Below, one piece after another: positions 13,148 through 13,504 of a stretch of DNA of 64,000 bases. The translations under genes were made by a program, and so were the position numbers. The notes under the pieces were generated by a model, which had not been told where the DNA came from, did no database searches, and was given only the letters and a program-made list of their open reading frames with translations. Source of the DNA: Raja brachyura (taxonomy: Eukaryota); NCBI GenBank assembly GCA_963514005.1, contig OY740823.1, positions 682,001 to 746,000 of the forward strand, in the 5' to 3' direction. Numbering within the stretch: position 1 is the stretch's first letter; the number at the start of each line of letters is the position of its first letter.

Positions 13148-13504
13148 CCAGAACGTGCAGTTGGACGGGTGTTATGAAGGTGTAAGTATCAAACTCGTCC
13201 ACTTCCAAGTAGAAGTAGTATACATCAGAGTCTTCGGATCTGAGGCGATTGATCCTCAGCGAGCAGTCTTTATTTTCCAGGTTACCAACGATTTTAGCCC
13301 GCCCTTTGAACGCGGCCATCCCGTAGTTGGGATCTCTGGAGTAAGACACCGTGTACTTCCAGTGGTACCAGTACTTGAACCACGCTCCGTGGATAGCGGT
13401 GTAAGGATGCGAGGGGAAGTCGAACGTACATGGTATCACCACGCAAGACTTCCTGATGGCACGATGGGACCGAGCCCGCATGGTCCATTCACCCGACTGC
13501 ACGC
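13148..13504 (-). CDS. Siglec/MAG-like gene, N-terminal V-set Ig exon
   Basis: 357 nt, acceptor CCATTCCAG, donor G|GTGAG, phase 1-1. Motifs SCVVIPCTFDFP, W, FKGRAKIVGNLENKDCSLRI, EDSDVYYF. Two B-strand-region Cys, an E-strand Cys and no F-strand Cys, as in Siglec V domains; resembles MAG TCVSIPCRFDFP/YYFRG...YTF. Confidence 0.92.

Follow-up and report, generated by a model that had tools for sequence, protein, structure and literature searches.

The window, a 64,000-nucleotide stretch of contig C47 of Raja brachyura, carries on its minus strand the exons of a Siglec-like gene, here referred to as copy A. The coding part of the signal-peptide exon (MIWQYCFPLLLLQ, with a phase-1 GT donor) lies at 15700..15739 and was located by tblastn with the protein models P0002 and P0003. 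It is followed by a V-set exon (13148..13504), a C2-type Ig exon for domain 2 (D2; 11800..12090) with an extra cysteine for an inter-domain disulfide, and an Ig exon for domain 3 (D3; 6665..6925) with its GT donor present. D2 falls below the Pfam cut-off; both D2 and D3 were identified by tblastn. The introns and upstream region also contain reverse-transcriptase fragments at 14050-15180 (with very high contig depth), 17575-18648 and 22963-23809, which, judging from their motifs, we take to be of LINE type. Two near-identical, intronless rhodopsin-family GPCR frames (Pfam 7tm_1, E 9e-20) lie inverted relative to each other at 25911-26831 (minus strand) and about 44813-45790 (plus strand). A fragment of the same GPCR is fused to the Rhinoraja model P0003, indicating that the neighbourhood is conserved.

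The V exon, read from 13504 to 13148, comprises 357 nt between an AG acceptor and a GT donor, with phase 1-1, and its translation contains ...GAWFKYWYHWKY...DSDVYYFYLEVDEFDTYTF.... The domain exceeds the Pfam cut-offs for both V-set and Ig_CD22. Its AlphaFold model (pLDDT 89) adopts the Siglec fold, with sialoadhesin as the best match (TM 0.90; Z 19.8, rmsd 1.5, 115 residues aligned) and MAG tied at Z 19.7. Sequence searches recover the same proteins (sialoadhesin, E 2e-14; MAG, E 1e-11), at only 28-30% identity. The domain contains the Siglec-pattern cysteines C19, C24 and C79, with Phe in place of the F-strand Cys. These three cysteines and F96 are invariant across the aligned V domains of the clade described below, and D2 carries its extra cysteine. 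From this pattern we infer an intra-sheet disulfide between strands B and E and a link to domain 2. A homodimer prediction for the V domain, run without an alignment, scored 0.02 and speaks neither for nor against dimerisation.

The central feature of the domain is the codon TAC at 13209..13211, which encodes Tyr97. By translation and phmmer alignment this residue occupies the column of the essential arginine in sialoadhesin (YNFRFE) and MAG (YYFRGD), equivalent to sialoadhesin R97 and MAG R118. Residue numbers here are those of the model, and the match between Tyr97 and sialoadhesin R97 is coincidental. The first-pass annotation had placed an F-strand tyrosine at this site, and both the residue and its codon hold up, as contigs of three organisms cross the codon with 0-1 differences. 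A public-run contig over 13140-13267 shows 0 differences (run X1, possibly the assembly’s own sample), while contigs from two other organisms each show 1 difference over 129-186 nt. Among the 40 of 64 difference rows covered, none falls at 13209-13211. The same tyrosine is encoded in all four paralogues of the genome (TAC in three, TAT in one), which rules out chance or error.

A tyrosine clade of sharks and rays

The genome contains at least 43 related V exons. Among the 30 that were fetched, four encode Tyr at the essential site, 25 Arg and one Gly, with the other 13 matches outside this count. All four Tyr-type paralogues lie on C47, namely the window copy (A) and copies B, C and D, whose V domains are 88%, 86% and 72% identical to it. 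Of the V exons L029 (C1058:7676-8020) and L015 (C51:4195562-4195828), one belongs to the Arg group with Gly at the essential site and the other contains an in-frame stop.

Tyrosine is present in 16/16 of the longer homologues found and in 40/40 of the clade proteins gathered, many of which are isoforms. These proteins represent 16 genera spanning skates, rays, sawfish and sharks; 38 of them carry the motif AW[FY]KYWxxWKY and two have one change in it. Identity to the window V domain is 61-82% for full-length clade domains and about 44% or less outside the clade. The suspicion that tyrosine defines a clade is borne out, since these proteins form a single elasmobranch group even when the arginine column is removed from the alignment. 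Support is 1.0 in a FastTree of the V domain alone (22 clade rows; 310 of 325 rows, after 15 gappy or duplicate rows were dropped) and 100/100 in a maximum-likelihood (ML) tree of V plus D2 (14 of 51 rows), from which P0130, P0133 and P0043 were omitted for want of a proper D2. The window gene clusters with skate proteins. Tyr occupies the arginine site in one unrelated domain as well, P0092, which is placed elsewhere in the tree. The homologue searches named no member from chimaeras or bony vertebrates, a result that does not prove absence. Sharks and rays separated more than 250 million years ago.

A literature search, conducted mostly outside subscription journals, found no publication on an Arg-less Siglec clade of sharks or rays. 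The accessible text of PMC7226832 does not mention sharks, and the accessible portions of PMC7916940 and PMC8455134 contain nothing on the Tyr clade. The gene should be called Siglec-like, because it is Siglec-derived yet fails the test of the essential arginine.

The remodelled face and its proposed ligand

The tyrosine is accompanied by a set of co-fixed residues. They include those of the motif AWFKYWYHWKY, encoded at 13353..13385 (minus strand), which covers strand C and the C-C′ hairpin and includes Ala39, Tyr43, Trp44, Trp47, Lys48 and Tyr49. Ala39 is found in 23/23 clade domains, as against 2/210 Arg-type domains, and the hairpin WxxW in 23/23 as against 2/302 others. With the truncated V domain of P0016 left out of the conservation counts, the motif is invariant in 22/22 aligned clade domains save at positions 41, 45 and 46; Y43, W44, W47, K48, Y49, Y95 and Y97 do not vary. 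Two further Cetorhinus paralogues have one motif change each (P0340, Lys42 to Glu; P0341, Ala39 to Thr). The aromatic character of the C-C′ region, noted from the single sequence by the first-pass annotation, thus extends throughout the clade as a KYWxxWKY hairpin. W44 aligns with the C-C′ tyrosine of sialoadhesin, and MAG Y65, in the same loop, touches ligand according to the accessible text of PMC5150538. Elsewhere around the site, W5 is present in 22/22 domains and the G-strand pocket positions are largely kept, with T107 and, at position 106, Tyr in eight domains (including the window copy) and His in 14. Lys48 and Arg67 are invariant in 22/22.

The F-G segment LEVDEFDTY, encoded at 13182..13208 (minus strand), is acidic family-wide. 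Net charge over positions 97-106 is -2 to -4 in 22/22 clade domains, compared with a mean of -0.56 for Arg-type domains over 98-106. The loop had been described as acidic on the basis of EVDEFD. Its acidity stands for the whole clade, whereas the second Glu of that motif (E102) is private to the window copy, the other 21 of 22 domains having Gly at this position.

The V exon is under purifying selection. V exons compared with copy D give dN/dS values of 0.24-0.41 (p<0.01). Conservation is higher in V than in D2 for 79/91 clade pairs and 28/28 MAG pairs; five related chondrichthyan-type proteins (four with Arg, one with Lys) show this in only 1/10 pairs. The chosen front positions are only modestly more conserved than the back (0.84 vs 0.71), with side-chain orientation taken from strand alternation and alignment, not from model coordinates. 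Against copy D, dS is lower for V than for D2 and D3; this hints at gene conversion within the genome, which would inflate within-genome similarity. Given the clade, the purifying selection and the conserved C-C′ hairpin, the earlier description of a maintained Siglec fold lacking the canonical site is valid for the lineage; it is not established for the window copy.

In this family, tyrosine is fixed at the arginine site. We propose, as the probable reading, that the rebuilt aromatic, acid-rimmed face serves as the docking site for a conserved non-sialic ligand. Because the arginine is absent, the salt bridge to the carboxylate of sialic acid could not form and would be gone. In accessible text, the R118A mutant of MAG no longer binds gangliosides (PMC5150538), and mutation of the arginine abolishes binding in Siglec-1, -5, -9 and -10 (PMC10122656). 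The acidic F-G rim would in addition repel the carboxylate. Ala39, on the neighbouring strand C, would make room for Tyr97, and F41, Y43, W44, W47, Y95 and Y97 would together create an aromatic surface, either flat or cage-like. As this surface has been fixed for so long, it may best be read as the binding site of a conserved ligand. Counting against the proposal are the small difference in conservation between front and back, the Lys42 and Ala39 changes in the two Cetorhinus paralogues, the hint of gene conversion, the front-face Lys48 together with Arg67, and the largely retained G-strand pocket positions. A protein partner is ranked as the most likely candidate, although only tentatively. 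Neutral glycans, themselves unlikely, and choline-type or other lipid head groups, rather less likely, come next.

Two accounts compete with a non-sialic ligand. One, to which we assign a low probability, is that sialylated glycans or gangliosides would still be bound through a second basic residue, either Lys48 on strand C′ or Arg67, in the manner of Siglec-6. The invariance of both residues favours this account, as do the position of Lys48 on the front face and the match of W5, Y/H106 and T107 to pocket positions of MAG and sialoadhesin; Arg67 presumably corresponds, by alignment, to Arg92 of Siglec-6. The accessible text of PMC10122656 discusses Arg92 in connection with that receptor’s Arg-independent sialoside binding, which supplies a precedent for ligand binding without the canonical arginine, and this D-strand arginine is conserved in the Tyr clade too. 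However, Siglec-6 retains its canonical arginine and still needs sialic acid (PMC10122656), whereas in the Tyr clade the canonical site is replaced. Sialoadhesin, moreover, is also basic at the Lys48 position, yet Siglec-1 without its essential arginine loses binding (PMC10122656, accessible text), and the F-G rim of the clade is net negative. Lys42 was considered as a compensating basic residue and set aside, because strand alternation would turn it away from the front face.

In the other account, the V domain itself binds no ligand. A V domain without a ligand is improbable in our assessment, and its fuller version is more doubtful still; here the domain would be a pathogen-escape form or a spacer, with the aromatics kept for folding or for a C-mannose on W44. 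The interpretation of Siglec-XII as an escape mutation (PMC13358205, accessible text) is in keeping with this account, and WxxW is given as the C-mannosylation sequon in the accessible literature. Arg-type domains, however, fold without these aromatics, and an escape allele is not expected to remain fixed across sharks and rays along with its neighbours. C-mannosylation of W44 was judged unlikely because the residue at +1 of the sequon is bulky, being Tyr, His or Phe in 21/22 domains; bulky +1 side chains clash with the enzyme, as described in the accessible text of PMC10154233 and PMC8433626. A conserved non-sialic ligand remains our preferred reading.

Relation to MAG and to other Siglecs

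The resemblance to MAG raises a further alternative, that MAG has its elasmobranch equivalent in the Tyr clade, which would act in myelin or cell adhesion through a non-ganglioside partner. We consider this doubtful. A search of the genome for a MAG-grade V exon found none, the best of 74 candidates scored reaching 38%, as against at least 51% in bony-vertebrate MAGs; that match, to a paddlefish MAG query, is an Arg-bearing, single-copy V exon at C11:59.94 Mb (L045). Of the 128 MAG hits, the 120 covered include no named chondrichthyan. Both observations would fit a Tyr clade standing in for MAG, although the assembly may simply lack the gene. The FastTree of the V domain alone places MAG as sister at 0.81, which is weak, while the ML tree of V plus D2 gives a polytomy at the sister position, and an AU test rejects neither a grouping with MAG (p 0.43) nor one with chondrichthyan Arg-type proteins (p 0.14). 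The F-G loop is MAG-like, and conservation is stronger in the V domain than in D2, a pattern that MAG shares. On the other hand, the N-terminal WxxW of MAG is missing, the clade having EWTMRA with no second Trp, and the residue at 118 is Tyr. The genes are also multi-copy, as in immune clusters, and five shark models (P0009, P0010, P0011, P0012 and P0020) combine a Tyr-type V-D2 head with stalks and tails 55-77% identical to those of Arg-type paralogues. In mammals, MAG lies in an LSR/FXYD neighbourhood. On C47 the search found no match to either family; at least two LSR-family matches are on C12 and at least one FXYD-family match is on C26. A related scenario, also improbable, is that a canonical MAG is missing from sharks and rays and that the Tyr clade is the sister of MAG, its site rebuilt before the shark-ray split as an aromatic cage for another ligand, with secreted decoys in skates. 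The clade also bears on the ancestral Siglec repertoire of jawed vertebrates and on the presence of MAG in cartilaginous fish.

The Tyr clade shares with sialoadhesin and MAG the same cysteine pattern, the A-strand Trp and, for the most part, the aromatic and Thr positions of strand G. It differs from them in having Tyr where they have Arg, in a strand-C Ala that replaces Ile/Val, and in the KYWxxWKY hairpin and the net acidic F-G loop, and it is nested in neither the sialoadhesin nor the MAG clade.

Loss of the arginine as such is ordinary among Siglec-like V domains. In 325 aligned domains the essential site is occupied by Arg in 210, Trp in 36, Tyr in 24, Gly in 14, Lys in 14, Gln in 11 and other residues in 16. 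The rarity of losing the arginine had been overrated, given that 115/325 sampled domains lack Arg, among them a separate clade in which Trp, Gly or Ile takes its place. This second old Arg-less clade (support 99/97) includes proteins of bichir, gar, characin, frogs, caecilians and turtle (P0023, P0044, P0053, P0069, P0111, P0161/P0207 and P0025), automatically named CD22-like and similar. It resembles the Tyr clade in being old, in lacking Arg and in its aromatic C strand. It is nevertheless distinct, without Ala39 or WxxW, and groups with Arg-bearing bony-vertebrate proteins (95/90), which makes an independent loss of the arginine likely.

Siglec-5/14 of apes also lacks the arginine. Human Siglec-XII, with a fixed mutation of the essential arginine, is a published precedent (PMC13358205, accessible text). 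Siglec-XII and ape Siglec-5/14 share with the Tyr clade the Siglec architecture, a tyrosine-motif tail and the lost arginine. They represent recent, species-level losses, whereas in the Tyr clade a single substitution is fixed in 16 genera on both sides of the shark-ray split, and the remodelled face that goes with it is under purifying selection. In reviews, the arginine of Siglecs counts as essential and nearly universal, with Siglec-XII as the best-known exception, a recent loss read as pathogen escape. The change from Arg to Tyr, held in all sampled sharks and rays, points to the gain of a new ligand and not just to loss, because neighbouring residues are co-fixed with it and the V domain is more conserved than the stalk. 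A Tyr-type and an Arg-type paralogue of the same animal thus form a clean pair for the study of non-sialic ligands of the Siglec fold.

Copies of the gene on the contig

Copies A and B (minus strand) and C (plus strand, inverted) lie within C47:612-698 kb and are segmental duplicates, 80-90% alike across introns; an additional exon-less 5′ segment lies near C47:641-642 kb. Copy A is a young duplicate without the domain-4 (D4) exon. Its collinearity with copy C breaks at window position 6052, where the matching sequence passes from C47:625455 straight to C47:629323, placing the junction of a deletion of about 3.9 kb at 6045..6055 (minus strand). D4 DNA is absent from the window, and the deletion junction was read. 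In C47:602-746 kb, where masked stretches are unreadable, neither tblastn nor blastn nor hydropathy revealed a transmembrane exon for copies A, B or C. For copy A, 82 kb beside it were covered, a result that falls short of proving absence. The hydropathy scan recovered the transmembrane segment of copy D and gave only non-homologous hits near A, B and C. A genome search with the transmembrane segment and tail of P0003, run without a positive control, yielded nothing among five candidates. The first-pass annotation had described the disulfide pattern, open frames and splice sites as intact; this is correct for the signal, V, D2 and D3 exons, which are open, have GT-AG boundaries and keep the Siglec cysteines, but the gene as a whole has lost D4 and shows no transmembrane exon.

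Read through the D3 donor, copy A continues to ...SQREYLL and a stop at 6650-6648, giving by arithmetic a product of 321 residues with three Ig domains. A predicted poly(A) signal of the secreted form, AATAAA, lies at 6388..6393 (minus strand), 255 nt past this stop; the corresponding distances are +255 in copy B and +263 in copy C, and copy D has no AATAAA within 2.5 kb at the corresponding place. Read-through combined with intronic polyadenylation would give a secreted three-Ig protein acting as a soluble competitor; otherwise the copy would drift. Models of 322-365 residues without a transmembrane segment occur in Amblyraja and Leucoraja, one of them with the same REYLL read-through end, and a model from Rhinoraja, in the same subgroup, has both D4 and the transmembrane segment. 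A Logan assembly is given as another source of one skate model lacking the segment, and this origin would point to a spliced transcript. Public-run contigs aligned over 17 kb contained no splice joints, only repeat noise.

A secreted decoy is close to an even prospect for copy A. The main competing view, somewhat short of even, is that the family is functional but the window copy, a segmental duplicate that has been truncated, is decaying towards a pseudogene. Copy A may be decaying because dN/dS is near 1 against its sisters and Gly102 is broken in A alone (G102E), in addition to the loss of D4 and the lack of a detected transmembrane exon. Copies A, B and C give dN/dS values of 0.7-1.4 on V and 0.7-2.0 on D2/D3, none of them significant, and the sister copies are damaged too, with a frameshifted D4 in copy C and a D4 minus one Cys in copy B. 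Conversely, all exons through D3 remain open in the three copies at a dS of about 0.1, the stop and AATAAA are retained in all three (although these are not independent), and models without a transmembrane segment exist in two other skate genera. That copy A has a transmembrane exon not yet seen is unlikely. Decay would concern copy A and is compatible with a conserved non-sialic ligand for the family.

Copy D is the member to study, the window copy being less informative. It lies at C47:1031584-1062835 (minus strand; loci L040-L043), 367 kb from the window copy, and spans V, D2, D3, D4, an uncharged transmembrane segment and an ITIM-like tail; its signal exon was not located. The tail ends DIYENYDGEFDSVYANV and contains the motifs DIYENY...SVYANV. 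A transmembrane segment with a tyrosine-motif tail is found in copy D and in most relatives. A charged residue of the activating, DAP12-coupled type is absent from the best transmembrane window of 20/20 clade models that have such a segment, and from that of copy D. In a member anchored in the membrane, the ITIM-like motif would damp signalling, and the YxN motif would also take part in signalling; we take both to be signalling motifs. The pairing of Tyr-type heads with Arg-type-like stalks in the five shark models suggests either that exons were shuffled within an immune cluster or that gene models were fused.
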